From: a virus
Lineage: Duplodnaviria; Heunggongvirae; Uroviricota; Caudoviricetes
IMG/VR virus record: IMGVR_UViG_2690315742_000009
Coordinates: 1 to 16,435 of that record
Reading direction: 5' to 3' (one strand)
Length of the DNA: 16,435 nucleotides
Shown one piece after another: positions 1-14,507 of this stretch. The translations under genes and the position numbers were made by a program. The notes under the pieces are model-generated. The model was not told the DNA's origin. It made no database searches and worked only from the letters and a program-made list of their open reading frames with translations. Positions within the stretch are counted from its first letter, which is position 1. Every line of letters starts with the position of its first letter.

Positions 1-1119
1 TCAAATAACCAACTTAACCCATTCCTGACCTCGAGTATCGTTATAGCGATCGGTGGTTGCCTGGACTTTATGTCCTAGTAATGTTTTTGTATCAATACCC
101 TGTGCACGGTACAGCCGTTCTGATAGAGAGCGTTGTTCATGAAATGTTGGCGGAGTTTTTCCTGCTGGTGGAATTATCCCAGCCAGATCCCGTGCTTTGG
201 CAAAGTAGTCGCTCAGGTTGTCTTTACTCATCGGCTTCGGTTGTTTCTGGTGCCGACTATGGATTAGATATGGACTTAATATTCTGTCTCGGCACCCATC
301 AATAACTTCTTTTAACGTTATCCCAATGGCATCACATCGTAGTGTAAGCGGTAACGCCAGACGCATTCCGGTTTTTCCCTGGGTGATATGCAAGTGTTCG
401 TTCCACACATCTGAAAAACGCATGTGGCAAATGTCATCACGGCGCTGACCAGTAACAATCGCAAGAAGCATTGCGTTACGGATAAAGTGTTTTTCAGGCG
501 TTGCATTGTAAATTTTTTGCCAGTCTTCCATGGTGAGCCTGGCTCTGGTTACTTTAGGGATCGGTTTACGGGTAGCCTCCGGAGGATTCCATCCAGGAGG
601 AACTTCCCCTGCATGCTGTGCTTCTTTATAAATATCAACCCATAATCCACGATTTACTCTCGCTGTGCTGACCATGTCTTTATCCAGCCACTCATCCAGT
701 ATTAATGCAAAGTCTCTTACTTCCAGTTCTTTCAATGGGTGGTTTCCCAGACGGGAAACCAGGTATGCAGCCATTCGGGTTTTTTCTTTGTGAGTTGTAG
801 CTGCAATATCTCCATTTTTCAGTCGCGTGTCCTGTATTTTCAGATATCGATCAACCCATGCCTTTAATCTGATACCCCGACGTTTTGTTGCTGACGGACT
901 TTCATCAATTTTGCGCATGAAATATTCAGCTTCTGCTGCAGCTATTCGCTGATTGGCTGTGGAAGCGATTTTTTCTGCCTTACCTTTGTCTGTTCCGAGT
1001 CCGTGAAATTTTCCAGTCACAGGATTTTTATACTGGTAGTAAACTCTGCCAGTTCTGCGATCAAACTTTTCGTAAAGACCGGCTACGTCAGTGCTGTTTT
1101 TTCGTGGCCTCGGTGACAT
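1..1119 (-). CDS. int: Phage-type tyrosine recombinase (integrase)
   Basis: 372-aa ORF, ATG at 1117-1119 with AGGAG about 12 nt upstream, TGA at 1-3. C-terminal half has the R...H-x-x-R...Y arrangement of tyrosine recombinases (TGQRRDD, HEQRS, TDRY). Excisionase-like gene lies immediately upstream, overlapping by about 30 nt. Confidence 0.85.
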   Translation of the reverse strand: MSPRPRKNSTDVAGLYEKFDRRTGRVYYQYKNPVTGKFHGLGTDKGKAEKIASTANQRIAAAEAEYFMRKIDESPSATKRRGIRLKAWVDRYLKIQDTRLKNGDIAATTHKEKTRMAAYLVSRLGNHPLKELEVRDFALILDEWLDKDMVSTARVNRGLWVDIYKEAQHAGEVPPGWNPPEATRKPIPKVTRARLTMEDWQKIYNATPEKHFIRNAMLLAIVTGQRRDDICHMRFSDVWNEHLHITQGKTGMRLALPLTLRCDAIGITLKEVIDGCRDRILSPYLIHSRHQKQPKPMSKDNLSDYFAKARDLAGIIPPAGKTPPTFHEQRSLSERLYRAQGIDTKTLLGHKVQATTDRYNDTRGQEWVKLVI

Positions 1120-1357
1120 GAGTTAAAATCTCCTTCAGTGCATCATCATCGCCAGTATGAATTTCCGGCGCAATTCCCGTTTCACCAGGCCCAACAAATA
1201 CTGCTCGGCGATCTATCAGCCAACGCCCACGAATTTTTTGTGGCCTTGGAACGATGTATCCTAGTTTTCCGTATTTCACCAGGGTAGTGTTTGTTATTGG
1301 GAGACTGAACCGTTTTGGTTTCCACTCGTCGAGCGTTATCAGGTACTGTTCGCTCAT
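1088..1357 (-). CDS. Excisionase-like small protein (DUF1233-type putative Xis)
   Basis: 89 aa from ATG at 1355-1357 with GGAG 8 nt upstream; the track's longer start is a GTG three codons earlier. Position directly upstream of and overlapping int is the classic xis position. Family assignment is from memory. Confidence 0.6.
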   Translation of the reverse strand: MSEQYLITLDEWKPKRFSLPITNTTLVKYGKLGYIVPRPQKIRGRWLIDRRAVFVGPGETGIAPEIHTGDDDALKEILTHVTEATKKQH

Positions 1358-1418
1358 GGCTATCACTCCGGAACGCGCCAGTTGCAGAATATCAACGACA
1401 ACTGGCGACGGTTGAACA

Positions 1419-3860
1419 TTAAAAATCAGCCTGACTCGGGATCAGTTTTTGCCAGATAACTGAAACGTATTTTGCCTGGTAACGAGCGTCATCAAGTGCA
1501 TTATGGCGCTCACCTTCGAATGGAATAGCCGTTCTGGCATCGAAGTCTATGGCTTTCCCCAGCTCAACGATTGTGCGTACATCGCGATCGTTGTAGTAAC
1601 GCCACGGGCAGGGGATCCCCTGCCGTTCGTATGAACGGCGCAAAATCGTGTTGTCGAAGTTGGCTCCATTTCCCCAGACCTGAACAAAAAATTCACCGGA
1701 GTTTTCGTCGATAAATTCCCGCAATTGTAACAGTGCATCATCTAACGGGATTTCATCGGTCATAATGGCAGATTGCGCTTCGCGTGATTGCTTAAGCCAC
1801 CATTTAATGGTGTCCCGATCAATGACTCCGCCAGCAGTTTCCAGATCGATAGTCTTACTAAATTCCGGTCCCATATCTCCGGTTTGCGGATCGAAAAATA
1901 TTGCACCTATTGAGATGATCGGGGCATCAGGATTTTTTCCCATGGTTTCAAGGTCGATCATTAGATGGTCACACGTCCTGCTGGTGGATGTGATTTCGTG
2001 ATGACCGTTCACCTTAATTGAGTGATCTGCCGTCTCGCCAGTTTTATTATCGCTGGCGTGATGCTGATTGCCGCCAGGGTTCTCCTTGTGTGGATGTTCA
2101 GCGCCTTCCATTTCCTCCGGATCATTTTCCTGAACTTCAACCTGATTCTCTTCATCGAATGTTTCCTGGTATGTTGCGTCGCCCATCACCGCGCCACAAT
2201 CAGGGCAGTTGCCGCCACCGCTCTGACCGCAGGCGGTGCAGACTTTTTCCGGTTCCTGTTGCGCTACTGGTTCGGATTGTTTCGTTTCTGGCTCGTTTTG
2301 TAACGCATTTGGGCTGTTTTGTTCCGCTTTTTGGTCGTTCCGTTCCGATTCATGCTGGTTCTGGTTCACAGAATCGCGAGTCTGGATCCCCTTGACCCAT
2401 TTCGGATCATTAGGGTCGCTAATCCCCTCAACAAATTCACCACGCGATACAGCAAGTAACTTATCGGCGTCAGGCTGGCTGATATTGGCTGCCTGCATAA
2501 TTTTGTTTACTTCGTCAGCGGTGACTTTTACTTGGTTAGCGGAACTCACCTGCGACTGAGCATCCAGCGACTGCGCGTTCTGGCCATGTTCAGTTGTATC
2601 CGGTTCCATTGTTTCAGTTGTTGCCTGTTCACCTGCCATTGCGTCAGATGGTTGTGGTTTTTCTTCTTCTGTTTCACGCTCAGTAACCACCTCGCGGTTA
2701 ATTTCTTCCAGGATATCTTTTTCCGGCGTATGCCGGGCAGCTGTGAGAGTTTCCTTGCTGGGGTTCTCGTGATCAGTTTCCGTCAAATAGGCGTTGATAT
2801 ACCCCTGAAGGCGTCCCGGGTAGTGATAAAATTCAGGGTGTGCGCTTCGGATAAGTGCAAAAATAGCGGCGCGGGAATAGTCCAGAATACCCGGGGTTGC
2901 ACGAAGTGCTGCGGACCATTCTTTGAACGGACTTTCTTTGTTCAGGACTACTTCTTTTGCGCGACGATAAACGCTGCCCGGAATTTCATAAATATTAAAA
3001 TCCATCGGAAGTGTGGCTGCTGCAATCTCCACATCCAGTGTGTCGAGGGTGTGTACTAAATTCGGATTGCGATCGGTTTTGTTCCCACCGCCAGCATTAG
3101 CACCGGAAGCCGTGCGGGTGATGCGTGAAACACGATTTCCTTTCATCCACTCTTTTGTCAGCAGACCCCGATCAGTGTAGTCAGCGTCCAGGTATGCTTC
3201 GAAAAAAGCAGTTATTAGTCCCAGGTCTGAATTACCAGGATTAGGGAAAACTTTGTCAGTGTCACGAACCAGTTTGTGGAGGTCGCGAATCTCCAGCGAG
3301 TCGAGCAGACTGGTTTTATGCGAAATAGCCAGGGCAGTAACAGCCGGTAGTTCTTCAGCCCGTGCAATGTGTAATGCCTGGAGTTCGTCGCGTGAAACGT
3401 GCGTTACTGGTTTTTCGCTGCCGTGTTGAGCAAGCCAACGAATGGGCAGTTCCTGACCGGAGACAGGCAGAAGCATGCTCTCCTCAATCTCAGTCATGTC
3501 TTCGCCGTTGATGTTGGTATTGTCAGTGCTGGCTGGTTTGTCCTGAACAGAGGGGGAAGGGCCGATAAATGTCATTGTGATGCCATCTTTCCCGCCTTTT
3601 TCATAGCGGTTGCAGAATTCAGTATCAAACACGCCTTCTGGCGGAAGGTCGTCAACAACGGGCAAATTGACGCGGACGGGTTTTTTAAAGTCGTCTTCAT
3701 CATAATCGTTGTCATCCATTGCGGTAATGCAGCGGGAGATTGCAACAGATAATTTTTTTGCTGTAGTCCAGTAAAAACCACCTTTAATTCCCAGGCGTTT
3801 TCTTACTTTGTCATTTTTTGCTTCGCAATATAGTGCAAATTCTTCTTTATCAGTGCTCAT
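1419..3860 (-). CDS. Exonuclease: RecE-like N-terminal region fused to a DEDDh (DnaQ-like) 3'-5' exonuclease domain
   Basis: 813-aa ORF, ATG at 3858-3860 with GAGG upstream. Residues about 110-600 closely resemble the non-catalytic N-terminal part of Rac RecE as I recall it (e.g. [71 protein letters not shown]). The C-terminal 200 aa carry DEDDh motifs (DLETMG; [12 protein letters not shown]; [13 protein letters not shown]) in place of the RecE nuclease domain. A long acidic low-complexity linker lies between. Confidence 0.8.
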
Positions 3861-3953
3861 TATTGGTAAACCTCATCACAGATTTAAGGGTGAACAAATC
3901 TCTGCCATTGCTGACATATAAGAATGAAACTGGATATTTATTACGGTGCTGTT

Positions 3954-4145
3954 TTAAAATCCTGCCGGGATTTCGTTATTATCCTGGTGAATAACTTTAT
4001 CGACCGGATAACAGTTGCCTGGAATTTTCTGTTCGGTTGCTGCTGCCATACATTCCTGCATTGTTCTGTGAACACTGACTGCAATATCAACTGGCTCTCC
4101 GGAAACAAGAAAAACCGTCAGAATAAGTGCAAATACTGGATTCAT
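3954..4145 (-). CDS. ydfD: YdfD-like small lysis protein (63 aa, N-terminal hydrophobic segment)
   Basis: ATG at 4143-4145 overlaps the dicB stop (ATGA). Protein MNPVFALILTVFLVSGEPVDIAVSVHRTMQECMAAATEQKIPGNCYPVDKVIHQDNNEIPAGF matches my memory of Qin YdfD in length and sequence. TAA at 3954-3956. Confidence 0.7.
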   Translation of the reverse strand: MNPVFALILTVFLVSGEPVDIAVSVHRTMQECMAAATEQKIPGNCYPVDKVIHQDNNEIPAGF

Positions 4146-4330
4146 TGTGCACATCCTTTTGGCATCAGACGTAAACGGGCCAGCATTGAAACAATGCATA
4201 CTTTATTTAATAACTCCCGTTCGTGTTTTCTTTTGTTAATGGCATCTTCAGTAAATACAGGATTACTGATAGTGACACCAATTTCAAAACAACCTTCAGA
4301 CGTATTAACGTTTGGTAATAACGTTTTCAT
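4142..4330 (-). CDS. dicB: Cell division inhibitor DicB (62 aa)
   Basis: ATG at 4328-4330 with GAGGG about 7 nt upstream; the track's GTG at 4435 is an upstream extension. Protein MKTLLPNVNTSEGCFEIGVTISNPVFTEDAINKRKHERELLNKVCIVSMLARLRLMPKGCAQ matches recalled DicB of the Qin dicBF operon. Lies immediately downstream of DicF. Confidence 0.75.
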   Translation of the reverse strand: MKTLLPNVNTSEGCFEIGVTISNPVFTEDAINKRKHERELLNKVCIVSMLARLRLMPKGCAQ

Positions 4331-4503
4331 TATCGCGCCCTCAACAATGAGTTTTGTGATGCGGTGCCTGGTGCCTCCAGGTGACGTTAACCAGTTAACA
4401 ATTAACGCCGGATACAGAGAATCCACCCATAACACTGTTTTTGGTTTTAACTGTTCCGCGTGCGCTTAGCCGCATTCACCGCATCACAAAATTCACTTTA
4501 AAA

Positions 4504-4556
4504 AGGGCGGCAGAGCAGTCACGGAGTAAAACTGATACCGCCAAACGTCACCAGAA
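4504..4556 (-). ncRNA. dicF: DicF small RNA (53 nt)
   Basis: Minus strand reads TTTCTGGTGACGTTTGGCGGTATCAGTTTTACTCCGTGACTGCTCTGCCGCCC followed by TTTT, which matches the 53-nt E. coli DicF sequence as I recall it. Contains a GC-rich terminator stem (GGCGG...CCGCC) and sits between a ydfC-like ORF and dicB as in the Qin operon. Confidence 0.8.
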
Positions 4557-4898
4557 AATTGATAACAGAGGGCGTTGCAGTGGGGTTGTCACTTAAGCGT
4601 ATGGTCAACCTGACAACCCGGTGTCCTCAACGGGGGAAGGAATAACCCCGCCATACTTACCGCCGCGCCATTTCGCGGATTGCCACAACCGGAAGCGCAC
4701 GGTCGACGAAAATTTAACGACAGGCTATCTATGAACCAGCTACCTCGCCGTGCGCTTTCGCGTTATGGTCTGACTTTTCAGGGAAATATCCTTTCAGTAA
4801 ACTGTCAGTGCCGGATGCTCACCCGTGTCCGGCGCACGCACTCCACCTCACCCGTGGAGAACTCCTTAATTACCAACCTTAGCTTCGTTGGTTAGCTA

Positions 4899-5117
4899 TT
4901 AACGCTGGTATGTAATCATTCTGGCAATGCTTAATGCCGCTGCTTTTTCCAGCCTGGTGATATCCTGCTCCAGAGCGGACAGATTTTCAGCCTGCTTAGC
5001 CCTGGCTTCATTGGCCCATTTCAGATCCTGCGCTGCATTAATTTTCTGGCGCATCCACTCATAAAGTTCATCATCGGTATAGTCTGGCGCGATGATGACG
5101 GGTTCTCGTTTCTGCAT
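4899..5117 (-). CDS. Small protein in ydfC position of the dicBF operon (72 aa)
   Basis: ATG at 5115-5117 preceded by a strong SD (AAGGAG, 7-nt spacer). Same length and operon position as Qin YdfC; sequence identity not verified. Confidence 0.6.
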   Translation of the reverse strand: MQKREPVIIAPDYTDDELYEWMRQKINAAQDLKWANEARAKQAENLSALEQDITRLEKAAALSIARMITYQR

Positions 5118-5188
5118 GTCGGCTCCTTGTGGTTAGCGTTGCCTGCTTTTAACCACGTCAGGCGAGGTGGTATCCTCTGAGGGGTCTG

Positions 5189-5545
5189 TTACTCGAGAGG
5201 AAATTGGTTATGAATACAATCAAGTTTTCTTGCCCAGAATGTGGTGGCGAAGTCTTTGACACATCCTTTAAGCCGCAGGGCTCTGACAGTTTCGCGGGAG
5301 CCATCTGCAAAAATTGTGGTCACCTTGTAACTGAAGATGAGTCCTCGCAGTTCGATGACGAAATCGTTGACAATATCTTCGGTGCACTCACCAGAGACTT
5401 TCTGAAATAAAGACGCATACCGCTTAGTTACCGCTCTGATAACTCTTACCTGTCCGGCAATGGCGCTGATGTCAATATAAAGCGCCATTGCTGCTTCTTT
5501 GCCGATCCCGTGATGCCTTCCATTCTGATGTTTGACTTCGCCCAC
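5189..5545 (-). CDS. Hypothetical protein (118 aa from GTG, or 99 aa from ATG at 5488); competing call with the plus-strand ORF 5210..5410
   Basis: Co-directional with the early-left operon. GTG at 5543-5545 preceded by AGAGGA (9 nt). Codon first-position G is about 44 percent in the non-overlapping part 5411-5545. Lies where ydfA/ydfB-type genes would be expected by synteny. It shares exact codon triplets in antisense with the plus-strand zinc-ribbon ORF, so one of the two is probably an artifact. Confidence 0.35.
   Translation of the reverse strand: MGEVKHQNGRHHGIGKEAAMALYIDISAIAGQVRVIRAVTKRYASLFQKVSGECTEDIVNDFVIELRGLIFSYKVTTIFADGSRETVRALRLKGCVKDFATTFWARKLDCIHNQFPLE
5210..5410 (+). CDS. 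Small acidic zinc-ribbon protein (66 aa); competing call with the minus-strand ORF 5189..5545
   Basis: ATG at 5210 with GAGAGG about 10 nt upstream. Two CxxCG knuckles 20 residues apart (CPECGG ... CKNCGH) form a canonical zinc-ribbon signature; acidic C-terminus. Opposite in orientation to the surrounding operon. Confidence 0.4.
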   Translation: MNTIKFSCPECGGEVFDTSFKPQGSDSFAGAICKNCGHLVTEDESSQFDDEIVDNIFGALTRDFLK

Positions 5546-5727
5546 TGAGAAATCCTCTGTTTCCCCTTAACGCCGGGGTAGCGGAACAAAAACCTGCTGC
5601 ATAGTTAAAGTTGAACCCTGCCGTCATGTTCTTACGCCTCGGGCTGGCTACTTAACCCCTGACCACTGCCTGGTAACTCGAAGTATTGCCCTGCATTCTG
5701 TGGGGCGGGGTGGGTTGGTATGTTGTT

Positions 5728-5756
5728 AAGGTAACAAGAGTTACCTTTAGAGTCAA
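5728..5756 (-). promoter_or_regulatory. pL-like early leftward promoter with overlapping repressor operator
   Basis: Minus strand reads TTGACT, 17-nt spacer, TACCTT. An 18-bp perfect palindrome AGGTAACAAGAGTTACCT (plus 5729-5746) overlaps the spacer and -10. Sits just downstream of the repressor gene terminator, facing the dicBF-exo-xis-int operon. Confidence 0.5.
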
Positions 5757-5786
5757 TACAATGTTGCAAAAGGTACATTTGAGGGC

Positions 5787-5811
5787 ATAAAAAACCCGCA
5801 ATGAATGCGGG
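5787..5811 (-). terminator. Rho-independent terminator after the repressor gene
   Basis: Minus strand CCCGCA-TTCAT-TGCGGG followed by TTTTTTAT; 6-bp GC-rich stem immediately after the repressor stop codon (5819-5821). Confidence 0.7.
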
Positions 5812-5818
5812 TTCTGAC

Positions 5819-6493
5819 TCAGTCTAAGTATTGATGTATTTGTGAAACTTTACCTTTAATGGTGTAACCACCATTCAGTTCGATGGGTTTGTAAAGCGGA
5901 TTCAGTGACAACAGATAGATGTTTGGTCCGTCAATCGCAACTTTTTTTAGTGTTACGTTTGGCGTTCCTTCCAATTGGATTAAGATTATTTTTCCCACCA
6001 GTTCTCTAATGTTACTTGAGCATGGTGTGATCAGCACGGTAGATCCGTCGGGGATGGTTGGGAGGCCGTTAGAGTTTGTCATCGCATCTCCCTCAACATG
6101 CAATAAAAAAGAGTTTTCAGCGGTTTTTGTCATGACATCAACCCAATTCTTAATACCAGGAATCTCGGTTACTGGACAACTCATATCCCAATAACCAGCC
6201 TGTTCCCACGTTAAAACGGGCAACCGGGCGATGTTGTCACTAATGTAAGGGTACTGATTCAGACGCAGATCATCGGTTTTATCGTGACAGTCCTTTCCAT
6301 AAAGAATCCATTCAGGAGATTTGGAAAGCAATTTTGACAGTAGATGCAAATTCTCACCGTCAGGTTTTGAAGAGCCATTTTCCCATTTTGTTACGGATAC
6401 ACGAGATATGCCGATTGCTTTCGCAACCTGCTGTTGGGTTAATCCAACGTCTTTTCGACGATTCCGAATACGTTCGCTGATAGTGTTTTTCAT
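5819..6493 (-). CDS. cI-like prophage repressor (N-terminal XRE-type HTH plus C-terminal S24/LexA-like peptidase domain)
   Basis: HTH signature LTQQQVAKAIGISRVSVTKWENG near the N-terminus and a LexA/cI-like C-terminal domain. Preferred start is ATG at 6491-6493 (224 aa, no SD, operator abutting, suggesting a leaderless transcript as for lambda cI). Alternative ATG at 6536; the track's TTG at 6592 would overlap the cro-like start. Confidence 0.85.
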   Translation of the reverse strand: MKNTISERIRNRRKDVGLTQQQVAKAIGISRVSVTKWENGSSKPDGENLHLLSKLLSKSPEWILYGKDCHDKTDDLRLNQYPYISDNIARLPVLTWEQAGYWDMSCPVTEIPGIKNWVDVMTKTAENSFLLHVEGDAMTNSNGLPTIPDGSTVLITPCSSNIRELVGKIILIQLEGTPNVTLKKVAIDGPNIYLLSLNPLYKPIELNGGYTIKGKVSQIHQYLD

Positions 6494-6509
6494 GTAACCA
6501 ATGTTACTA
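6492..6509. promoter_or_regulatory. Operator-like palindrome (ATGTAAC-CAAT-GTTACTA) at the repressor start; PRM-like region
   Basis: Third copy of GTAAC-N4-GTTAC, directly abutting the repressor ATG. A TAACAT -10-like hexamer lies 7 nt upstream of the ATG on the minus strand. Confidence 0.45.
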
Positions 6510-6528
6510 CCAAGTGATGTTGCTATGG

Positions 6529-6558
6529 TTGACATTGCTATGTAACTATTGTTACCCT
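6529..6558 (+). promoter_or_regulatory. pR-like early rightward promoter with overlapping operator
   Basis: TTGACA (6529-6534), 18-nt spacer, TACCCT (6553-6558). Palindrome GTAACTATTGTTAC (6542-6555) overlaps the spacer and -10, mirroring the pL-like architecture. SD AGGAG and the cro-like ATG follow at 6585. Confidence 0.5.
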
Positions 6559-6584
6559 CCCGCTCGAAATAACAGGAGAGTTTT

Positions 6585-6797
6585 ATGTTCAAAGATGATG
6601 TTCTGCGCTATTTCAAAAAAAAGCGACTAGTAGCTGAGGCTCTTGGAATTTCACATGTGGCTGTTGTGCGGTGGAAAGCAGTTATTCCCAAACTTCGCGC
6701 AATGGAACTGGATGAAATTACTAACGGTGAATTGAAATACAACCCAGAACTTTACAAGAAGCAGGATAGCACCTCGAACGAAGGAAAGAATGATTAA
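6585..6797 (+). CDS. Cro/DicC-like small HTH regulator (70 aa)
   Basis: Divergent from the repressor; AGGAG 7 nt upstream of ATG. Sequence pattern (LRYF...LVAEALGISHVAVVRWKA...RAMELDEITNGELKYNPELY) resembles DicC/YdaS-type Cro-like proteins from memory. Stop overlaps the next gene's start by 1 nt. Confidence 0.75.
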   Translation: MFKDDVLRYFKKKRLVAEALGISHVAVVRWKAVIPKLRAMELDEITNGELKYNPELYKKQDSTSNEGKND

Positions 6798-7222
6798 TGA
6801 AAATCAAGCATGAACACATCCGCATGGCGATGAATGCCTGGGCGCATCCGGACGGCGAAAAAGTACCGGCTGCGAAAATTACCAAAGCGTATTTCGAGCT
6901 GGGAATGACGTTCCCGGAACTGTATGACGACAGCCATCCGGAAGCCCTGGCTCGCAATACTCAGAAAATATTCCGCTGGGTGGAGAAAGACACCCCTGAT
7001 GCTGTTGAAAAAATTCAGGCGTTGTTACCAGCGATCGAAAAAGCAATGCCACCTCTGCTGGTGGCCCGAATGCGCAGCCACAGTTCAGCCTATTTTCGGG
7101 AGCTGGTGGAGATGCGGGAACGACTGGTGAGAGACGCTGATGATTTTGTCGCAGTGGCGATCGCTGGTTTCAATCAGATGAATCGTGGTGGTCCGGCGGG
7201 AAATGCCGTGGTGGTGCATTGA
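6797..7222 (+). CDS. cII-position regulator (YdaT-like, 141 aa)
   Basis: Translationally coupled to the cro-like gene (TAATG overlap). Sits between cro-like and replication genes, i.e. the cII position. N-terminus MKIKHEHI resembles Rac YdaT as I recall it; unverified. Confidence 0.55.
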   Translation: MKIKHEHIRMAMNAWAHPDGEKVPAAKITKAYFELGMTFPELYDDSHPEALARNTQKIFRWVEKDTPDAVEKIQALLPAIEKAMPPLLVARMRSHSSAYFRELVEMRERLVRDADDFVAVAIAGFNQMNRGGPAGNAVVVH

Positions 7223-7243
7223 TAACGTGTTCTGGGGGAGGGG

Positions 7244-8209
7244 ATGAAGCTCCTTTTTGCTGAACGTCCGCTGGTTATAAACACGCAGCTGGCGATGAAA
7301 ATTGGTCTGAACGAAGCCATCGTGTTGCAGCAGCTGCATTACTGGTTGAGAGATACCAGTTCCGGCATGGAATGTGATGGTGTTCGCTGGATTTATAACA
7401 CAACAGAACAATGGCTGGAACAGTTCCCGTTCTGGTCAGAGTCAACGTTAAAACGCGCATTTGCAAGTCTGAAAACGCTGGGGCTTTTGCGTTGCGAAAA
7501 GCTCAACAAATCAAAGCGTGATATGACTAATTTTTACACGATTAATTACGAGAGCGAGCTTTTAGATGGTGGCAAAGTGAACGAATCCATCAGGTCAAAA
7601 TGCGCCGCTCCATCAGGTCAAAATGACACGATGGAAGAGGTCAAAATGGCACGCTCCATTGGTTCAAAACGACCCAATGTCATCGGGTCAAAATGGCCTG
7701 ATGATCTTACAGAGAATACAACAGAGATTACTACAGAGAATAAAAAAACTTCTCGTCCGGAAGCTTCGCAACCGGACATGCAGACGGCTGAACAGGATTT
7801 TTTAAACCGACACCCTGACGCGGTTGTGTTCAGTGCGAAAAAACGCCAGTGGGGCAGCCAGGAAGATTTAGCGTGTGCGCAGTGGATCTGGGGACGAATC
7901 GTGAGTCTTTACGAGCAGGCTGCCAGCGATGATGGCGAAATCATGCGACCGAAAGAACCAAACTGGACTGCATGGGCCAATGATGTGCGCACAATGCGGA
8001 TGCTGGATGGCAGAACTCACAGACAAATTTGCGAAATGTTTGGTCGGGTACAGCGGGATCCATTCTGGGTAAAAAACGTCATGAGCCCGTCAAAGCTTCG
8101 CGAAAAATGGGATGAGCTGGTTATTCGTCTGGGGCGTTCGCCTGTACAGCGTTGCGTGAATCACATTTCTGAACCGGACACCGAAATTCCGCCGGGGTTC
8201 AGGGGGTAA
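7244..8209 (+). CDS. Replication initiator (lambda O-like replisome organizer) with internal origin
   Basis: 321-aa ORF directly upstream of the DnaC-like loader. Five 23-bp-spaced iterons and an AT-rich tract lie inside the coding region, as ori-lambda lies within O. GGAGG sits only about 2 nt from the ATG, so the start is uncertain. Confidence 0.7.
   Translation: MKLLFAERPLVINTQLAMKIGLNEAIVLQQLHYWLRDTSSGMECDGVRWIYNTTEQWLEQFPFWSESTLKRAFASLKTLGLLRCEKLNKSKRDMTNFYTINYESELLDGGKVNESIRSKCAAPSGQNDTMEEVKMARSIGSKRPNVIGSKWPDDLTENTTEITTENKKTSRPEASQPDMQTAEQDFLNRHPDAVVFSAKKRQWGSQEDLACAQWIWGRIVSLYEQAASDDGEIMRPKEPNWTAWANDVRTMRMLDGRTHRQICEMFGRVQRDPFWVKNVMSPSKLREKWDELVIRLGRSPVQRCVNHISEPDTEIPPGFRG
7587..7695. 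repeat. Iteron array: 5 direct repeats of about (CCATCA)GGTCAAAATG with exact 23-bp periodicity; putative replication origin
   Basis: TCAAAA cores at 7596, 7619, 7642, 7665 and 7688. First two copies are identical 16-mers (CCATCAGGTCAAAATG); the others are degenerate (GAGGTCAAAATG, TTGGTTCAAAACG, CGGGTCAAAATG). Confidence 0.7.
7709..7748. repeat. AT-rich tract with three phased ACAGAGA(A/T)TA repeats ending in A7; putative DNA-unwinding element of the origin
   Basis: TACAGAGAATA, ACAGAGATTA and TACAGAGAATAAAAAAA spaced about 11-12 bp apart (helical phasing) immediately downstream of the iterons. Confidence 0.55.
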
Positions 8210-8215
8210 CGGGCT

Positions 8216-8962
8216 ATGAAAAATATTGCGGCAGATGGTGTTCTTGAGCGTATCCGTAAGCTGGCCCCGCAGCATGTAACTGCGGCGTACCGGACAGTGG
8301 ACGAGTGGCGGGAGTGGCAGCTTGCAGAAGGGCGAAAACGTAGCGAGGAGATCAACCGCCAGAATCGCCAGTTACGGGTGGAAAAATTCCTGAATCGTTC
8401 CGGTATCCAGCCGTTGCACCAGAAATGTTCGTTTGCGAATTACCAGGTGCAGAACGACGGACAGCGTCATGCACTCAGCCAGGCGAAGTCCATTGCAGGC
8501 GAACTGATAACCGGGTGCACGAATTTTGTGTTCAGCGGTAAGCCGGGTACCGGAAAGAATCATCTGGCAGCAGCCATTGGCAACCATCTTCTGGCGAAAG
8601 GTCGCAGCGTGATTGTGGTGACGGTGGCGGATGTGATGCTGGCGTTACACGGCAACTACGACAACAAAAACTCAGGCGAAAAATTTTTGCAGGGGTTGTG
8701 TGAAGTTGACCTGCTTATCCTGGATGAAATCGGTATGCAGCGGGATACGCGTAACGAACAGGTCACACTGAACCAGATAGTCGATCGCAGAACGGCCTCG
8801 ATGCACAGCGTCGGGATGCTGACAAACCTGAACCACGCAGCGATGAATACGCTGCTTGGCGAACGCGTGATGGACCGCATGACCATGAACGGTGGTCGCT
8901 GGGTGAATTTTAACTGGGAGAGCTGGCGCCCGAATGTTGGTCAGCCAGGTATTGAAAAGTAA
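8216..8962 (+). CDS. DnaC-like replicative helicase loader (IstB-like AAA+ ATPase)
   Basis: Walker [16 protein letters not shown] and Walker [10 protein letters not shown]; 248 aa; immediately downstream of the O-like gene. Confidence 0.85.
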
Positions 8963-8982
8963 TTTTTACCGGGAGGAAATTT

Positions 8983-9726
8983 ATGGAGACTGTTTTTGAC
9001 GCACTGAAAGCGATGGGAAAAGCCACGTCGGTAGAGCTGGCTGCGCGACTTGATATCAGTCGTGAAGAAGTACTGAACGAGCTGTGGGAACTGAAAAAGG
9101 CTGGTTTTGTTGATAAAAGCGCGTACACCTGGCGTGTGGCTGATAACAACGTTCAGCAGGAACAGCCAGCGCCAGAAGAACAGCCGGAAGAAACCACCAC
9201 GGCGACAGTAGCGAAAATCTCAGAGTGCGATTTAACCGCGACGATTGAACAACGCGGACCACAAACGGCGGATGAACTGGCTACGCTGTTCGGTACAACA
9301 TCCCGCAAAGTGGCTTCAACGCTGGCAATGGCAATCAGCAAAGGTCGTCTGATTCGTGTTAATCAGAACGGTAAATTTCGTTACTGCATGCCGGGCGAGA
9401 ATTTACCAGCAGAGCCGAAAGCGGCATCGGTAGCGGAAACTGATGGTAAAGCCTTTCCTCAGCCTGCATGTGTTGCGTTACCAGTACAGGAAGCTGCAAC
9501 ACAGGAAGATATTAAAACAGAAACTGTGGCGGACATTGTGCAGCCGCTTGAGAAGCGAGTGGATAATCTGGTTCTGCCATCGCTGCGACAGGCAAACCGC
9601 GAACTGCGTCGGGCGAAAAGTGATATCAGGAAATGGGAGCGAGTCTGTGCCGCGCTGCGGGAGCTGAATAAATATCGCGATATTGTCGCCCAGCTTTGCC
9701 AGGAGGCAACCAGTGAGAAAAATTAA
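8983..9726 (+). CDS. Hypothetical protein with two winged-helix-like segments (DUF1627-like, from memory)
   Basis: GGGAGG 7 nt upstream of ATG. Acidic, Q/E/P-rich linker between two HTH-like stretches ([28 protein letters not shown]; [32 protein letters not shown]). Confidence 0.5.
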
Positions 9727-10282
9727 TTATCAGGCGCTACGTGAGATAGCAAAACAGGCAACACAAGGCGAATGGGTCGCATTTATTTCGCCGGGCAAAT
9801 ACGGCACGTACGCCGTGCACACGCCAGGAGATAATCATCACGGAGATATTGTCGACTGGCCTGGATTCGACGGACAGAAAAACGCAGAGAACAACGCTCG
9901 TTATATCGCAGCTTTCAACCCTGAAGTAGTGCAGGCGCTGCTGGATGAACGGGAAGCCCAAAGCAAACGCATTGCAGAACTGGAAGCTAATTTTGCGACG
10001 CTGGCAGTGGAGAATGTGGGGTTAAATAAATTCATTAAGGATGATTGCTTTATTTATACAAGCGATGACATCAGCCCACGCGATGCAAATGGATTCAAGC
10101 CTGAAACGCCAGCTACTGACGCTTTCCTGGTTGATATACAGGCGGTGGCGTTTAACGAGCTTCGCGCGGCGTTTGTCAGGCATGCAAAAGTTGCAGAACT
10201 GGATGATGCCGATACTGTAACGCTTAAGGAAGTGATGGATGCGCTGCTGCATTGTGTAGAACAGCTTCGCGCTCCAGAATAA
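9713..10282 (+). CDS. Ead/Ea22-like protein (189 aa from GTG)
   Basis: AGGAGG (9701-9706) 6 nt upstream of GTG at 9713; the track's TTG at 9683 is less likely. N-terminal motif [19 protein letters not shown] resembles the Ead/Ea22 family from memory. Overlaps the previous gene by 14 nt. Confidence 0.6.
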
Positions 10283-10377
10283 ATAAATTTATCACTGTAA
10301 ATAAAATTTAATCCTTAACCGGAGGGATTTCTACACCCTCAGAACAGCAGGAGGCCACCCGAAAGGGCGGTAGTGAA

Positions 10378-10560
10378 ATGCGAAAGTTCAAAGTAATTAT
10401 TGAAACTGGAATAGCTGGTGGAGATTTTGAGGATGTATTCGAAGTGGACGATGACGCAACACCTGATGAAATTCATGACGAAGCAAAAGAAATTTTCTTT
10501 AACTACTGCAATTACTCATATCACGAAATAAAAGACGAAGAGGAAGAACAAAATGGCTGA
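10378..10560 (+). CDS. Small highly acidic hypothetical protein (60 aa, 19 D/E against 5 K/R)
   Basis: ATG at 10378. An AGGAGG lies 24 nt upstream but is brought closer by a predicted GAAA-loop hairpin between SD and ATG. Stop overlaps the next ORF's start. Confidence 0.45.
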   Translation: MRKFKVIIETGIAGGDFEDVFEVDDDATPDEIHDEAKEIFFNYCNYSYHEIKDEEEEQNG

Positions 10561-10729
10561 TTTTGGTTCAACTAAATATAACGCCAGTTTTGAAGAATGG
10601 CATGAACTGTTAATGGACTATGCAGAGTTACGCGGTGGAAGTGCCGCCGATGCTGAAGCATGGCGTGATGACTATGAAGCAGGAAAAACTCCGGTCGAAG
10701 CATATTGTGATGAGTGGGGCTATGAATGA
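10553..10729 (+). CDS. Small acidic hypothetical protein (58 aa, 15 D/E against 4 K/R)
   Basis: Not in the supplied track (below 60 aa). ATG at 10553 with GAGGAAG upstream, overlapping the previous stop. Its TGA overlaps the next gene's ATG (ATGA). Sequence MADFGSTKYNASFEEWHELLMDYAELRGGSAADAEAWRDDYEAGKTPVEAYCDEWGYE. Confidence 0.45.
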   Translation: MADFGSTKYNASFEEWHELLMDYAELRGGSAADAEAWRDDYEAGKTPVEAYCDEWGYE

Positions 10730-11241
10730 GCGAGATTAATTATCAGGAAGGGCATGAAACGGCAGGGCAGGCAAAACCAGTTGCATGGCGATATCGCTAC
10801 GTGAAAAAAGGCGTTACGGACTTTCAGGAGAAGATGTGGGTTGGTGACTGGAAATATGTACCGACAAAAGAGGATTGCAACGACAGGCCGAGCTATGAGA
10901 TTCAGGCATTATTCACTACCCCGCCAGTCCCGGTGATATCAGAAGGACTGGTTAAAGCCGTGCGCTTTTATGAACAGGTAAAGCGTGAAAATCCGCCAGC
11001 CGAAACAGGAGCATGGAAAGACGCTGTTGACTGGGTGCTCAAAGAGGCCTGCTGTGCTGTCATTCTGGGTAAAGCCGACAATCCACTAGCATCCAGTAAT
11101 CAGGTTGGCGAATTAACAATGTGGGTTAAACGACTGGTCAGTCAACTGAAAAAAGCTAATCCAGACTGCAAATTACCGGAGATGGCGATGCATTACCTGA
11201 AACGAAATGGACTGATAAGCGTGGAGGATGTTTTACGATGA
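10726..11241 (+). CDS. Hypothetical protein (171 aa) with Ead/Ea22-like N-terminal motif
   Basis: ATG coupled to the upstream ORF (ATGA). N-terminus SEINYQEGHETAGQAKPVAW parallels the N-terminus of the 9713..10282 protein. Confidence 0.6.
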   Translation: MSEINYQEGHETAGQAKPVAWRYRYVKKGVTDFQEKMWVGDWKYVPTKEDCNDRPSYEIQALFTTPPVPVISEGLVKAVRFYEQVKRENPPAETGAWKDAVDWVLKEACCAVILGKADNPLASSNQVGELTMWVKRLVSQLKKANPDCKLPEMAMHYLKRNGLISVEDVLR

Positions 11242-11321
11242 CCTGGCCTGAGGCATTTACAACGGCAGGAATTGCAATGGCGGCGGCGCTGGTGGTGTAT
11301 TCGATTTGCCGCTGGGGATAA
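11238..11321 (+). CDS. Possible 27-aa hydrophobic peptide (MTWPEAFTTAGIAMAAALVVYSICRWG)
   Basis: ATG overlaps the stop of the 171-aa gene (ATGA); single predicted transmembrane-like stretch. Very short, so speculative. Confidence 0.25.
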   Translation: MTWPEAFTTAGIAMAAALVVYSICRWG

Positions 11322-11328
11322 AAACGGT

Positions 11329-11356
11329 TTGCGGGAAAAGGAGAGTTAAGTAGAAT
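11329..11356 (+). promoter_or_regulatory. Candidate promoter of the hok mRNA
   Basis: TTGCGG, 16-nt spacer, TAGAAT. The predicted start (about 11361-11365) coincides with a 5' element (GCGGGTGCTTGAGG, 11361-11374) that is complementary to the mRNA 3' end. Confidence 0.4.
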
Positions 11357-11475
11357 TGCAGCGGGTGCTTGAGGCTATCTGTCTCAGGCATGAACACCAA
11401 AAGGCAGATAGAGAAAAGCCCCAGTTAACATTACGCGTCCTGCAAGACGCTTAACATTAATCTGAGGCCATATCT

Positions 11476-11535
11476 ATGCGACACATAGAGATTAGCCTCT
11501 TACGGACCGAAAGGTCAAGGAGAAGCAGGCTATGA
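11476..11535 (+). CDS. Short upstream reading frame coupled to hok (mok-like, 19 codons)
   Basis: ATG at 11476; its TGA overlaps the hok ATG (ATGA). Analogous to mok-dependent translational coupling in hok/sok loci, but much shorter than classical mok. Confidence 0.3.
   Translation: MRHIEISLLRTERSRRSRL
11489..11518 (-). promoter_or_regulatory. Candidate promoter for a Sok-like antisense RNA
   Basis: Minus strand TTGACC (plus 11513-11518), 18-nt spacer, TAATCT (plus 11489-11494). Predicted antisense start near 11482, reading across the start of the upstream coupled frame. Confidence 0.4.
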
Positions 11536-11687
11536 AGCAGCAAAAGGCGATGTTAATCGCCCTGATCGTCATCTGTTTAACCGTCATAGTGACGGCACTG
11601 GTAACGAGGAAAGACCTCTGCGAGGTACGAATCCGAACCGGCCAGACGGAGGTCGCTGTCTTCACAGCTTACGAACCTGAGGAGTAA
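11532..11687 (+). CDS. hokD: Hok/Gef-family type I toxin (51 aa)
   Basis: AAGGAG SD. Protein MKQQKAMLIALIVICLTVIVTALVTRKDLCEVRIRTGQTEVAVFTAYEPEE has a single transmembrane helix plus a conserved Cys-containing periplasmic tail, and matches my memory of HokD (RelF). Confidence 0.85.
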   Translation: MKQQKAMLIALIVICLTVIVTALVTRKDLCEVRIRTGQTEVAVFTAYEPEE

Positions 11688-11755
11688 GAGACCAGGCGGG
11701 GGAGAAATCCCTCGCCACCTCTGATGTGTCAGGCATCCTCAACGCACCCGCACGT

Positions 11756-11783
11756 AACCCGCTTCGGCGGGTTTTGTTTTTTC
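11756..11783 (+). terminator. Rho-independent terminator of the hok transcript
   Basis: AACCCGC-TTCG-GCGGGTT (UUCG tetraloop, 7-bp stem) followed by TTGTTTTTT. Confidence 0.75.
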
Positions 11784-11854
11784 CTGGCATTCTGGTTTAC
11801 AATTCGCACGCCAGCCTGAACAACTGGCACCTGCTGCGCCAGCAGAGACAACCG

Positions 11855-12127
11855 ATGGCGCACAATACCAAATATCACAATTCTGATACCGACCTTGCCA
11901 GCAGGTGCGGGCTGTGTTCTCACGCATTCAAATATGACTGGTATCAGCACGATCCCTGCACTGAAGAACAGGCCGAATGGCTGATTCATAACTACCGCAG
12001 ACGTGGGTATGAGTTTAAGAAAGCCCTTAGCCTCGACTACCGTCACTGGATAATCTACGTCAGGCTCCCTTATTCCGAACGCCCGCCGCGTCCGTCCCGC
12101 ACATTCCAGCAACGCATCTGGAGGTAA
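11855..12127 (+). CDS. Small Cys/His-containing protein in the position of Qin rem (90 aa)
   Basis: ATG at 11855. The track's upstream start at 11726 would run through the hok terminator hairpin, so I truncated it. Contains CGLCSHAFKYDWYQHDPC. GGAGG near its 3' end serves the next gene. Confidence 0.5.
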   Translation: MAHNTKYHNSDTDLASRCGLCSHAFKYDWYQHDPCTEEQAEWLIHNYRRRGYEFKKALSLDYRHWIIYVRLPYSERPPRPSRTFQQRIWR

Positions 12128-12128
12128 T

Positions 12129-13184
12129 GTGAGGGTATTAGTGACTCCTGAAATTGCTCACCGTCTGGGGATTGTACTTTTCAGGCCCGGTCCTGATGCG
12201 ATGCCTTTGTTTATGCAGGGGCGTGTACTGGTCGAGCCGGAACCAAAAAGCATGCGCGGTCTGCCGTCCGGGGTCGTTCCTGCCGTTCGCCAGCCGCTGG
12301 CGGAAGACAAATCTCTGCTGCCATTTTTCAGCGATGAGCGGGTGATTCGTGCTGCCGGCGGCGCTGGTGCACTGTCTGACTGGCTACTGCGTCATGTCAA
12401 ATCCTGCCAGTGGCCTCATGGTGACTACCATCACAGTGAAACCGTCATACATCGTTACGGTACCGGCGCGATGGTGTTGTGCTGGCACTGCGACAACCAG
12501 CTGCGTGACCAGACCTCCGAATCACTGGAACATCTGGCTCAACAAAACCTGGCAGCATGGATGATTGACGTCATCGGTCACGCAGTAAGCGGTACGCAGG
12601 AGCGTGAATTATCTCTGGCTGAATTATCCTGGTGGGCAGTCCGCAATCAGGTGGCGGACGCGCTACCGGAAGCGGTATTACGTCGTTCGCTGGGGTTGCG
12701 TGCGGAAAAAATCCGCTCAATGTACCGTGAAAGCGACATCGTACCGGGAGAGCAGACCGCCACCAGCATACTGAAGCAGCGCACAAAAAATCTTGCGCCG
12801 CTGCCTCACGCCCACCAGCAAAACCCGCCACAGGAAAAGACGGTGGTCAGCATTGCTGTTGATCCGGAGTCACCGGCTCAGTATCTCCAGCGCCAGAAAC
12901 CACAACGGGAAGAGATGCCTGTATACACGCGCTGGGTAAAAACGCAGAAATGCATGACGTGCGGTAATCAGGCAGATGATCCGCATCACATCATTGGTCA
13001 TGGACTGGGAGGGATGGGAACAAAGGCTGATGATTTGTTTGTTATTCCGCTGTGCCGTAAATGTCATAACGAACTGCACGCCGGGGTAAAAGATTTTGAA
13101 GAAAAACACGGCAGCCAGCTGTTGTTGCTGATTCGTTTTTTAATGCACGCGAGAAATTCGGGTGTCCTGAAGTGGAAAGCATGA
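12129..13184 (+). CDS. DUF968-type protein with C-terminal HNH-like Cys/His motif (YdfU-like)
   Basis: GTG at 12129 with GGAGG 5 nt upstream. C-terminus CMTCGNQADDPHHIIGHGLGG...CRKCHNELH resembles an HNH/zinc-finger nuclease motif. Upstream of rusA, in the nin-region equivalent. Confidence 0.75.
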   Translation: MRVLVTPEIAHRLGIVLFRPGPDAMPLFMQGRVLVEPEPKSMRGLPSGVVPAVRQPLAEDKSLLPFFSDERVIRAAGGAGALSDWLLRHVKSCQWPHGDYHHSETVIHRYGTGAMVLCWHCDNQLRDQTSESLEHLAQQNLAAWMIDVIGHAVSGTQERELSLAELSWWAVRNQVADALPEAVLRRSLGLRAEKIRSMYRESDIVPGEQTATSILKQRTKNLAPLPHAHQQNPPQEKTVVSIAVDPESPAQYLQRQKPQREEMPVYTRWVKTQKCMTCGNQADDPHHIIGHGLGGMGTKADDLFVIPLCRKCHNELHAGVKDFEEKHGSQLLLLIRFLMHARNSGVLKWKA

Positions 13185-14236: not shown

Positions 14237-14248
14237 AAGGCATATATT
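14220..14248 (+). promoter_or_regulatory. Candidate late promoter (pR'-like) at the 3' end of the Q-like gene
   Basis: TTGCAA (14220-14225), 17-nt spacer, TATATT (14243-14248); the predicted transcript runs about 70-80 nt into the terminator at 14303-14326. Confidence 0.45.
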
Positions 14249-14302
14249 TCATGCAAATCTGATATTTTGCCGATTTTGTACGTGATGGCAAAAGCAAACA
14301 AA

Positions 14303-14326
14303 ACCCGCCCACAAGCGGGTTTTTTG
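14303..14326 (+). terminator. Rho-independent terminator (tR'-like)
   Basis: ACCCGC-CCACAA-GCGGGT followed by TTTTTTG. Confidence 0.7.
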
Positions 14327-14392
14327 TGCCACTTATCTCGGATAGACATGGTGAATGCGCTGGTGGAGGAGATAAGGGTGATTTTTGAATGC

Positions 14393-14421: not shown

Positions 14422-14430
14422 CCTGCGCCC

Positions 14431-14506: not shown

Positions 14507-14507
14507 G

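Follow-up and report, generated by a model that had tools for sequence, protein, structure and literature searches.

The early-left operon of this lambdoid prophage ends in a gene whose 813-residue product is a mosaic, in which the N-terminal scaffold of RecE is joined to a DEDDh head of the DexA/Rv2179c family at the place where RecE itself carries a PD-(D/E)XK nuclease. Given where its stand-alone homologues are encoded, the protein is best read as having a role in phage DNA metabolism. Our specific explanation, held tentatively and at a little under even probability, is that the protein may be an early-left exonuclease of a Qin/Tritos-type lambdoid prophage, trimming phage DNA ends and leaving strand exchange to the host. 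The window, by which we mean the whole 16,435-nucleotide stretch of viral DNA analysed (IMG/VR record IMGVR_UViG_2690315742_000009), carries the gene and its parts as follows.

1419..3860, minus strand: chimeric exonuclease gene, RecE N-terminal scaffold plus DEDDh head (ORF list and translation)
2721..3860, minus strand: N-terminal folded scaffold, aa 1-380, homologous to the RecE N-terminus
1986..2720, minus strand: acidic linker, aa 381-625, predicted disordered (pLDDT, D+E content, BLASTP)
2196..2240, minus strand: CxxC-x7-CxxC putative zinc ribbon within the linker, aa 541-555 (motif positions)
1443..1967, minus strand: DEDDh (DnaQ-like, PF16473) 3'-5' exonuclease domain, aa 632-806 (Pfam, AF2, Foldseek)
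1953-1955 and 1947-1949, minus strand: catalytic codons D636 and E638
1653-1655, 1503-1505 and 1488-1490, minus strand: catalytic codons D736, H786 and D791

The open reading frame begins with ATG, has GAGG about 10 nt 5' of its start codon, and is the final gene of its operon, with a constant position ahead of xis and int. BLASTP against K-12 RecE aligned residues 58-615 with RecE 50-591 at 331 identities in 565 positions (59%) and found zero similarity past RecE residue 591, so that the resemblance ends at the start of the RecE PD-(D/E)XK nuclease. Pfam recognises PF06630 (Exonuc_VIII) in the N-terminal region (E 1.7e-35). The NCBIfam equivalog for exodeoxyribonuclease VIII, NF007259, matches residues 1-615 over profile positions 1-602 of 877, and the score of 942.7 bits lies below the curated equivalog cut-off of 1269, so the protein fails the RecE equivalog test. 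PF12684, the PD-(D/E)XK-like head of K-12 RecE, was not found in the protein by Pfam, and the RecE C-terminus used as a tblastn query had no match in the window. The place that PF12684 occupies in RecE is taken by PF16473 (Rv2179c-like 3'-5' exoribonuclease), which matches aa 632-803 with E 1.1e-67 and 227.6 bits against a cut-off of 27, covering positions 2-177 of the 177 in the profile. The first-pass annotation, made from the letters of the DNA, had proposed a RecE-like N-terminal region with a DEDDh C-terminus in place of the RecE nuclease, and both halves of that proposal hold.

Between the scaffold and the head, the linker is common to RecE as far as RecE residue 591, and 22-24% of its residues are D or E. 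The CxxC..CxxC motif within it is also present in K-12 RecE by BLASTP, and the Pfam DZR match at this position is weak (E 0.096). We considered the motif as a conserved functional site and rejected it given that only 6-7 of 44 family representatives carry it, which makes it accessory.

The C-terminal domain contains the motifs D636-x-E638, D736 and H786-x4-D791. Motifs of this type had been put forward in the first-pass annotation, and an alignment of fusion and stand-alone homologues bears them out, with D636, E638, D736, H786 and D791 kept in 18-20 of 20 proteins; one representative, P0137, has lost two of its catalytic residues. In the AF2 model the DEDDh domain has pLDDT of mostly ~80-94, falling to ~58-69 over aa 671-700, while the N-terminal region shows a small alpha/beta domain (aa 1-100) and helical domains (aa 120-240 and 270-375), and pLDDT stays below 50 across most of aa 382-626. 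Fold searches with the N-terminal scaffold returned no informative match. With the model of the DEDDh domain, the top Foldseek matches were T4 DexA, RNase T and Orn, and the probability was 1.00 for these three and for a Cas2-DnaQ domain. The closest solved structure is T4 DexA (PDB 8kel/8ken; Foldseek E 2.6e-8 for 8kel, 22% identity, phmmer E 1.9e-6), which has the same DEDDh residues, its D7 and E9 aligning with the D-x-E of the head, but stands alone as a protein of 227 aa and has additional loops. M. tuberculosis Rv2179c, which gives PF16473 its name, is related through the family match and differs in being, per the Pfam description, a chromosomal single-domain exoribonuclease. Neither the phmmer matches in the PDB nor the top 50 Foldseek matches included a chain of Rv2179c, and a literature search on Rv2179c found no report of phage homologues. 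The head is under strong purifying selection, with dN/dS of 0.09-0.12 against 0.3-0.5 for the scaffold, and it is predicted to act as a 3'-5' exonuclease on DNA 3' ends.

The neighbouring genes place this exonuclease within a recognisable type of prophage.

1..1119, minus strand: integrase gene (int), prophage left end (ORF list, PGAP annotation)
1088..1366, minus strand: excisionase gene (xis), directly downstream of the exonuclease gene (ORF list, PGAP annotation of a near-identical prophage)
3954-4199, minus strand: ydfD-like DUF1482 gene (Pfam DUF1482)
about 4142-4330, minus strand: dicB (annotations)
4505-4556, minus strand: DicF sRNA (Rfam, 76.7 bits)
13185..13550, plus strand: RusA Holliday-junction resolvase gene, early-right operon (PHROG 34 E 2.7e-56, PGAP annotation)

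The attachment site adjoins potC in related genomes, and the window also encodes sok and four tRNAs. Rac RecE (b1350) resembles the window protein in its N-terminal ~600 aa, where the two agree at 59% of positions across 558 residues and share both the acidic linker and the CxxC..CxxC motif, and its gene likewise belongs to an early-left operon, close to xis and int. The two differ in that RecE has a PD-(D/E)XK 5'-3' double-strand exonuclease head (PF12684) where the window protein has DEDDh, and in that recT, ralR and rcbA come next after Rac recE, whereas the window gene directly precedes xis with no recT- or lar-like gene in between. The exonuclease of phage Tritos (OV696610, TRITO_27, 823 aa) has a DEDDh head that is 99% and a linker that is 76% identical to those of the window protein. 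Tritos and K-12 Qin both follow the order cI, ydfA/B/C, DicF, dicB, ydfD, exonuclease, xis, int, and in the window the ydfD-like gene, dicB and DicF (3954..4556) share the leftward operon of the exonuclease in this same order. In contrast, over its first ~260 aa the Tritos type shows essentially no relationship to the window protein (24-25% identity), which indicates that the N-terminus is itself modular. The Qin gene of K-12, ydfE, is a truncated pseudogene, cut by IS2E, in which only codons 1-256 of the Tritos type are left.

The DEDDh head also occurs as a protein of its own. The stand-alone DnaQ-like exonucleases of mEp235 (gp30) and epsilon34 share 58% identity with aa 631-806 and have the same catalytic residues. 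However, gp30 is a 182-aa single domain whose gene lies between those for SSB and Abc2 and adjoins Erf, in an Erf-SSB-Exo-Abc2 module, whereas the head in the window forms part of a fusion with the RecE scaffold and has no Erf, SSB or Abc2 partner. In a lytic Klebsiella phage the order is exonuclease, gp2.5-like SSB/annealase, stand-alone DEDDh homologue, DNA polymerase; several other stand-alone homologues sit in early regions where recombination genes could not be recognised. The homologues in the mEp235 module and in the Klebsiella phage indicate a family of phage DNA replication/recombination nucleases. Given that PF16473 is named after an exoribonuclease and that DEDDh enzymes often act on both RNA and DNA, it is these gene neighbourhoods that point to DNA as the substrate.

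The absence of an annealase partner and the direct succession of xis and int, both remarked on in the first-pass annotation, are confirmed. Pfam and PHROGs scans detected no annealase among the remaining ORFs of the window, and RecT, Bet, Erf, Gam, Abc2, lambda Exo and SSB used as tblastn queries had zero matches in it. A hidden annealase among the unannotated ORFs (171 aa, 133 aa, DUF1627 and O-like) was considered and ruled out by Pfam and PHROGs. The longer annotated contig of the near-identical prophage of TUM9757 is likewise without an annealase, and in a search where Rac loci served as positive controls, an annealase or anti-RecBCD gene was absent from 80/80 related IMG/VR loci. RusA is the sole recognisable recombination function in the window besides the exonuclease. 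As the PD-(D/E)XK head is absent and no RecT, Bet or Erf adjoins the gene, classical RecET recombination is excluded.

What the window has in abundance is Chi, with eleven octamers (GCTGGTGG) on both strands.

164..16094, both strands: all eleven Chi octamers
164, 1980, 7057, 7102, 10414, 11288, 14359 and 16087, plus strand: 8 Chi sites
12760, 12812 and 14501, minus strand: 3 Chi sites

The expected number is 0.55, and eleven was reached in 0 of 200 shuffles. The near-identical 22.8-kb prophage of TUM9757 has 14 Chi on the top strand and 4 on the bottom strand, and the 80 related loci together show an orientation bias of 195 to 12, while the Rac, lambda and mEp235 loci have no Chi. Zheng et al. 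2025 count DnaQ-like 3'-5' nucleases as components of lambdoid Rec modules and describe Chi-rich lambdoids without anti-RecBCD functions, among them a nuclease-only class (class B in their Table 1) with Tritos as prototype (PMC12315714). The window belongs with this class both in Chi, having 8 top-strand sites across its 16.4 kb, and in gene content, lacking RecT, Bet, Erf, SSB, Gam and Abc2 and having the Tritos gene order. Phage LLS, which has no Rec module, grows better with RecBCD, and the same was predicted for the remaining Chi-rich lambdoids (PMC12315714). Speaking against our explanation, Lovett 2011, as cited in that paper, is given as the source for the statement that homologous recombination is usually inhibited by 3'-5' exonucleases (PMC12315714). 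The Chi excess and RusA fit a phage that relies on host RecBCD-RecA for recombination; what connects the phage with RecBCD and Chi is correlated gene content, which does not show that the 813-aa protein itself acts in the RecBCD pathway.

In the explanation that we favour, the gene would stay silent until induction or infection and then be transcribed, together with dicB and ydfD, from the leftward promoter that the repressor controls. The head would then take nucleotides off DNA 3' ends and process intermediates of phage replication or recombination, for instance cutting back 3' tails or flaps so that RecBCD can act on the ends. No 3' tails would be produced for an annealase; strand exchange would be left to host RecBCD-Chi-RecA and the resolution of junctions to RusA. 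The N-terminal scaffold may be an autonomous module that delivers whichever nuclease head it bears to one common target.

It is conceivable, if unlikely, that the protein is instead a defence nuclease directed at superinfecting phages, attacking either 5hmC-containing T-even DNA in the manner of EcD/HREX or the 3' ends of RNA phages in the manner of TONDO, with the RecE region as an auxiliary part. Besides T4 DexA being the closest solved structure, this reading can point to an E. coli DexA homologue that digests T4 DNA and protects cells, in a family whose bacterial members are commonest in Escherichia (PMC12153337). A preprint further describes TONDO, ISG20-like DEDDh enzymes with variable auxiliary domains, some of them prophage-borne, that defend against MS2 and Qbeta; its candidates were limited to proteins of <500 aa (PMC13344964). 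However, the gene stands at the distal end of a repressor-controlled early-left operon, where genes are normally silent in the lysogen, and a minus-strand promoter-like site of its own was not found between the repressor gene and the exonuclease ORF, although this is a weak test. Stand-alone homologues, moreover, lie in the replication modules of lytic phages. The residue pattern of the HREX type was also considered and rejected, given mismatches at the D169 and D90 positions: A770 falls at DexA D169, proposed to recognise 5hmC, and D708 at DexA D90, a tetramer residue that is Ala in EcD according to its description, with residue equivalence uncertain in a MAFFT alignment at ~22% identity. The PADLOC defence models gave a lone, non-significant match (E 0.027). 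The first-pass annotation had suggested a role other than RecET recombination, naming end processing and anti-defence as examples; the exclusion of classical RecET stands and end processing is plausible, but no positive evidence for anti-defence was found.

A similarly low probability attaches to single-strand annealing of reversed polarity, in which the head would resect the 3' strand so that the 5' tails anneal spontaneously or with help from the host, joining linear phage DNA end to end independently of an annealase. There are precedents for recombination with 3'-5' exonucleases, as in vivo cloning in E. coli needs XthA and poxvirus recombination employs the 3'-5' exonuclease of the polymerase. 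The RecE N-terminal region, which both proteins have in common, specifically raises linear-linear recombination (Fu et al. 2012, as summarised in PMC11611040), and the stand-alone homologue in mEp235 adjoins Erf. In contrast, an annealase is nearby in 0 of the 80 loci, the Chi orientation bias points to RecBCD-RecA recombination, and DexA, RNase T and Orn are mostly single-strand or oligonucleotide exonucleases and not processive enzymes of double-strand resection.

It is quite improbable that RNA is the substrate, its 3' ends being trimmed or degraded by the head in the manner of Rv2179c and RNase T. The exoribonuclease name of the Pfam family and the presence of RNase T and oligoribonuclease among the best structural matches would agree with it, and DicF, sok and the tRNAs of the window, along with host transcripts, would supply potential substrates, such as phage tRNA precursors. 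Yet the head is joined to a scaffold that belongs to a DNA recombination nuclease, stand-alone homologues lie among DNA replication/recombination genes, and the exonuclease T4 DexA, the nearest relative with a solved structure, acts on DNA. Very improbable, too, is nucleotide scavenging, in which host DNA fragments would be reduced to mononucleotides during lytic growth. Lambdoid phages are not known to break down the host chromosome; a partner endonuclease for host DNA breakdown was not seen in the window by Pfam or PHROGs, and scavenging would not account for the attachment of a 600-aa RecE scaffold. In its favour, this is a classical role of T4 DexA, the nearest structure, for which the structure record and PMC12153337 give host DNA degradation.

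It is worth noting that the gene is an ordinary one and already catalogued, and much less remarkable than the first-pass annotation implied: the DEDDh segment was found in 4224 of 5426 complete E. coli genomes (78%), in 9042 copies and often several per genome, while Rac-type recE was found in 1743 of the 5426. A 100% identical protein is present on hundreds of E. coli contigs, where it is annotated PF06630+PF16473, and the gene is carried by the free phages Tritos, mEp460_ev081, Evi and HannyBb. A search for related genes outside E. coli returned 12 loci, nearly all of them from Escherichia or Shigella, and at the similarity level searched the fusion appears essentially confined to that lineage. 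The DEDDh version is frequently still labelled 'exodeoxyribonuclease VIII', which misleads on both polarity and fold. Nothing that we found demands a new mechanism. These numbers bear on whether the protein might be a relic without function, a chimera that arose by accident and drifts in defective prophages, which is barely credible: although K-12 Qin has only the truncated ydfE, ORFs are shortened in 4/76 related loci and P0137 lacks two catalytic residues, the ORF is intact (744-835 aa) in 72/76, head dN/dS is ~0.1, the carriers include viable phages, and the DEDDh-bearing scaffolds form 15 clusters at the 50% identity level besides the thousands of genomic copies. The data on selection and intact ORFs already go most of the way to refuting the relic reading.

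The wider interest of the protein lies in its scaffold. Among 80 long scaffold representatives, 22 have a PD-(D/E)XK head, 15 a DEDDh head and 43 neither; ten of those with neither were checked, and eight had no Pfam match and none a Pfam nuclease domain. As the scaffold is thus found with two heads of opposite polarity and with none, the region would work independently of the polarity of resection. The function of the N-terminal region is still obscure even in RecE itself (PMC11611040), where the role of these 600 aa is a decades-old puzzle, yet they make full-length RecE good at linear-linear recombination (PMC11611040). The natural combinations of scaffold and head are ready-made head-swap variants for experiments. 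A broader proposal, which we consider doubtful, is that the RecE N-terminal region may be an autonomous targeting module and the DEDDh version, taken in this proposal as the commonest RecE-like gene in E. coli, a phage accessory of the RecBCD pathway, and not a substitute for it, whose annealase-independent end processing would let host RecBCD use the DNA ends of Chi-rich lambdoid phages. Should the protein indeed aid the RecBCD- and Chi-dependent growth of lambdoid phages that have no annealase, a missing piece would be added to the model of Zheng et al. 2025.

The 813-aa product of the exonuclease gene is a RecE chimera in which the nuclease head has been swapped for one of opposite polarity with an intact DEDDh site. 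Residues 58-615 align with residues 50-591 of K-12 RecE at 59% identity, where the similarity ends (BLASTP), and only the first 602 of the 877 positions of the NCBI RecE equivalog model are matched, with a score under the cut-off. Beyond this breakpoint, RecE of K-12 (Rac prophage) has a PD-(D/E)XK-like nuclease domain (PF12684, aa 615-850), whereas the window protein has PF16473, 'Rv2179c-like 3'-5' exoribonuclease' (aa 632-803, E 1.1e-67, Pfam). The DEDDh residues D636, E638, D736, H786 and D791 are kept in 18-20 of 20 homologues, fusions and stand-alone proteins together. An AlphaFold2 model, with 44 homologues as input, is confident at aa 1-100, 120-380 and 632-806 and disordered over the acidic stretch at aa 381-626; the best solved matches to the head are T4 DexA, RNase T, oligoribonuclease and a Cas2-DnaQ domain, and fold searches with a confident model of aa 1-385 found no solved or viral relative. 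The first-pass annotation had proposed just such a RecE-like N-terminal region followed by a DEDDh domain instead of the RecE nuclease fold, and both halves of that proposal hold, as does the conservation of the catalytic residues on which it had staked its reading. We regard this identity and architecture as well supported.

The window spans, from int and xis through to the lysis genes, the left half of a lambdoid prophage of E. coli. An annotated prophage in strain TUM9757, beside potC, is 98% identical to it. The features concerned are as follows.

1419-3860, minus strand: RecE-N::DEDDh exonuclease gene (ORF call, 813 aa)
directly downstream of the exonuclease gene: xis, then int (ORF list and TUM9757 prophage annotation)
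4505-4556, minus strand: DicF sRNA, between ydfC and dicB (Rfam, 76.7 bits)
11363-11687, plus strand: hok/sok type I toxin-antitoxin locus (sok RNA, Rfam 106.7 bits)
12129-13184, plus strand: DUF968 protein, 351 aa, with HNH-type nuclease signature PF16784 (PHROG 96, 'HNH endonuclease')
in the window: RusA resolvase gene (PHROGs scan)
14431-14740, plus strand: four tRNA genes, downstream of the Q antiterminator gene

The placement of DicF between ydfC and dicB is common to the window, the K-12 prophage Qin and Escherichia phage Tritos, and given this arrangement the dicB operon has the exonuclease as its distal gene. Elsewhere in the window, the sok RNA overlaps the start of a hokD-like ORF (51 aa, 11532-11687), and the DUF968/HNH gene, directly upstream of rusA, is a second nuclease of the early-right operon. 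The tRNA cluster reads Met or Ile (anticodon CAT; Met by ARAGORN, its orthologue Ile by PGAP), Lys-TTT, Thr-TGT and Gly-TCC.

No annealase accompanies the exonuclease. When the other window ORFs were scanned with Pfam and PHROGs, none matched the RecT, Redbeta, Erf, Sak or Sak4 families. As tblastn queries, RecT, Bet, Erf, SSB, Gam, Abc2, lambda Exo and the RecE head had no match in the window or in 80 IMG/VR loci with a head at least 96% identical (flanks of up to 8 kb each side, contig permitting); in Rac loci, the positive controls, RecE and RecT were both detected. Diverged copies in other E. coli prophages keep the order kil or dicB, exonuclease, xis, int. The earlier claims of a missing annealase and of a gene lying directly before xis and int are thus confirmed, the former in the window and in 80/80 related loci; each refuting condition that the first-pass annotation had named came out in favour of its observation.

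The scaffold behaves as a shuffled module. Searched in full with HMMER, 1.84 billion cluster representatives yielded only 265 relatives of aa 1-615; among the 80 of at least 450 aa, 22 carry a RecE-type PD-(D/E)XK head, 15 a DEDDh head and 43 neither. Ten of these 43 were checked: eight lack any Pfam match and a ninth matches PF06630 alone, at its N-terminus, which is reminiscent of the nuclease-less 'RecE-2' proteins mentioned by Zheng et al. 2025 (PMC12315714). The tenth (P0124, 703 aa) joins RecE N-terminal residues 1-528 straight to a RecT domain (PF03837, E 1e-42) without a nuclease head; it may have arisen by a natural deletion, or the fusion may be an artefact of gene calling. The extreme N-terminus is exchangeable too: Tritos-type and window proteins are 99% identical in the head and only 24-25% over the first ~260 aa. 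The Qin pseudogene ydfE (b1577; 6079-6999 of locus L104), cut by IS2E, can now be identified as the first 256 codons of the Tritos-type exonuclease (99% identical). One E. coli and one Shigella locus (L011 and L012, 10001-12982) encode a homologue of the RecE N-terminal region that is 79% identical to RecE over 457 aa and in which neither a RecE nor a DEDDh head is detectable; ~1.3 kb downstream lies a segment resembling lambda Gam (81% over 96 aa).

The gene is maintained, functional and very ordinary in E. coli prophages, as its prevalence, intact ORFs and dN/dS indicate. Among 5426 complete E. coli genomes, DNA for the DEDDh head was found at 9042 places in 4224 genomes (up to 8 per genome), the Rac-type recE head at 1835 places in 1743, and recT at 1922 places in 1810. 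The exact window protein occurs on hundreds of contigs, with the precomputed Pfam architecture PF06630+PF16473. Upstream sequence is complete in 76 of the related loci, and in 72 of these the ORF is intact at 744-835 aa (823-aa form 47 times, 813-aa form 12 times). The head is under purifying selection (dN/dS 0.09-0.12; scaffold plus linker 0.3-0.5), and a functionless relic is refuted by these selection and ORF data. One DEDDh-bearing fusion cluster (752-aa representative P0137) has Lys for the catalytic Glu and Ala for the second Asp, and its lineage may be catalytically dead. A 22.9-kb contig labelled 'MAG: Veillonella parvula' (L006, JAGZPX010000007.1) carries the E. coli prophage gene at ~93-100% protein identity, most likely as a binning contaminant.

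Stand-alone homologues of the head (~180-190 aa) occur within the Erf-SSB-Exo-Abc2 recombination module of the lambdoid phage mEp235, in CPS-53-like early regions, among the early genes of a P2-like Klebsiella phage, where a DNA adenine methylase gene follows two genes downstream, and between a gp2.5-like SSB/annealase and DNA polymerase in a lytic Klebsiella phage. DnaQ-like 3'-5' nucleases are one of four nuclease types listed in lambdoid Rec modules, with sporadic copies near int (Zheng et al. 2025, PMC12315714). Because of these neighbourhoods and that listing, the head family is part of the gene sets for phage DNA replication and recombination, which argues for DNA 3' ends as its probable substrate despite the 'exoribonuclease' name.

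Eleven Chi octamers (GCTGGTGG) lie in the window (164-16094) against 0.55 expected, ~20x over shuffled sequence; 8/11 are on the plus strand, the orientation active for RecBCD coming from the right-hand cos end, and the orientation bias over 80 related loci is 195 to 12. No Chi site occurs in the Rac, lambda and mEp235 loci compared, all of which have Rec modules. This matches the published pattern: lambdoids without anti-RecBCD accumulate oriented Chi sites, and phage LLS, with no Rec module, demonstrably grows better when RecBCD is present, as is predicted for the remaining members (PMC12315714). That scheme takes Tritos as prototype of a small class that has a nuclease but neither an annealase nor an anti-RecBCD gene; the Tritos exonuclease (TRITO_27) is the same gene in the same order as in the window (cI, ydfABC, DicF, dicB, ydfD, exonuclease, xis, int).

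We tentatively favour end processing alongside RecBCD, a role that may well prove wrong. The exonuclease would be made after induction, its scaffold would direct the head to some partner or structure, and the head would take nucleotides off DNA 3' ends, processing ends or flaps of phage intermediates, with strand exchange left to host RecBCD-RecA. A defence nuclease, on the model of the E. coli DexA homologue EcD ('HREX'; PMC12153337) or of the ISG20-like anti-RNA-phage TONDO exonucleases (PMC13344964), is doubtful: the operon position speaks against it, as do the lack of a promoter-like site of its own (a weak test), proposed 5hmC-recognition residues left unmatched in a low-identity DexA alignment, and no significant PADLOC match. 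Single-strand annealing with reversed polarity, without an annealase, is possible but unsupported, and we consider it improbable. RNA trimming, suggested by the name of the family and by its RNase T-like fold, earns still less credence, as the gene neighbourhoods do not point there, and nucleotide scavenging as in T4 is most unlikely for a temperate lambdoid phage.

Protein databases already catalogue the RecE-N::DEDDh exonuclease; most E. coli genomes contain its gene, which described phages also carry and which fits a published class. The label 'exodeoxyribonuclease VIII' is misleading for such genes, and their natural head swaps offer a route to studying the RecE N-terminal region, which has long been unexplained.
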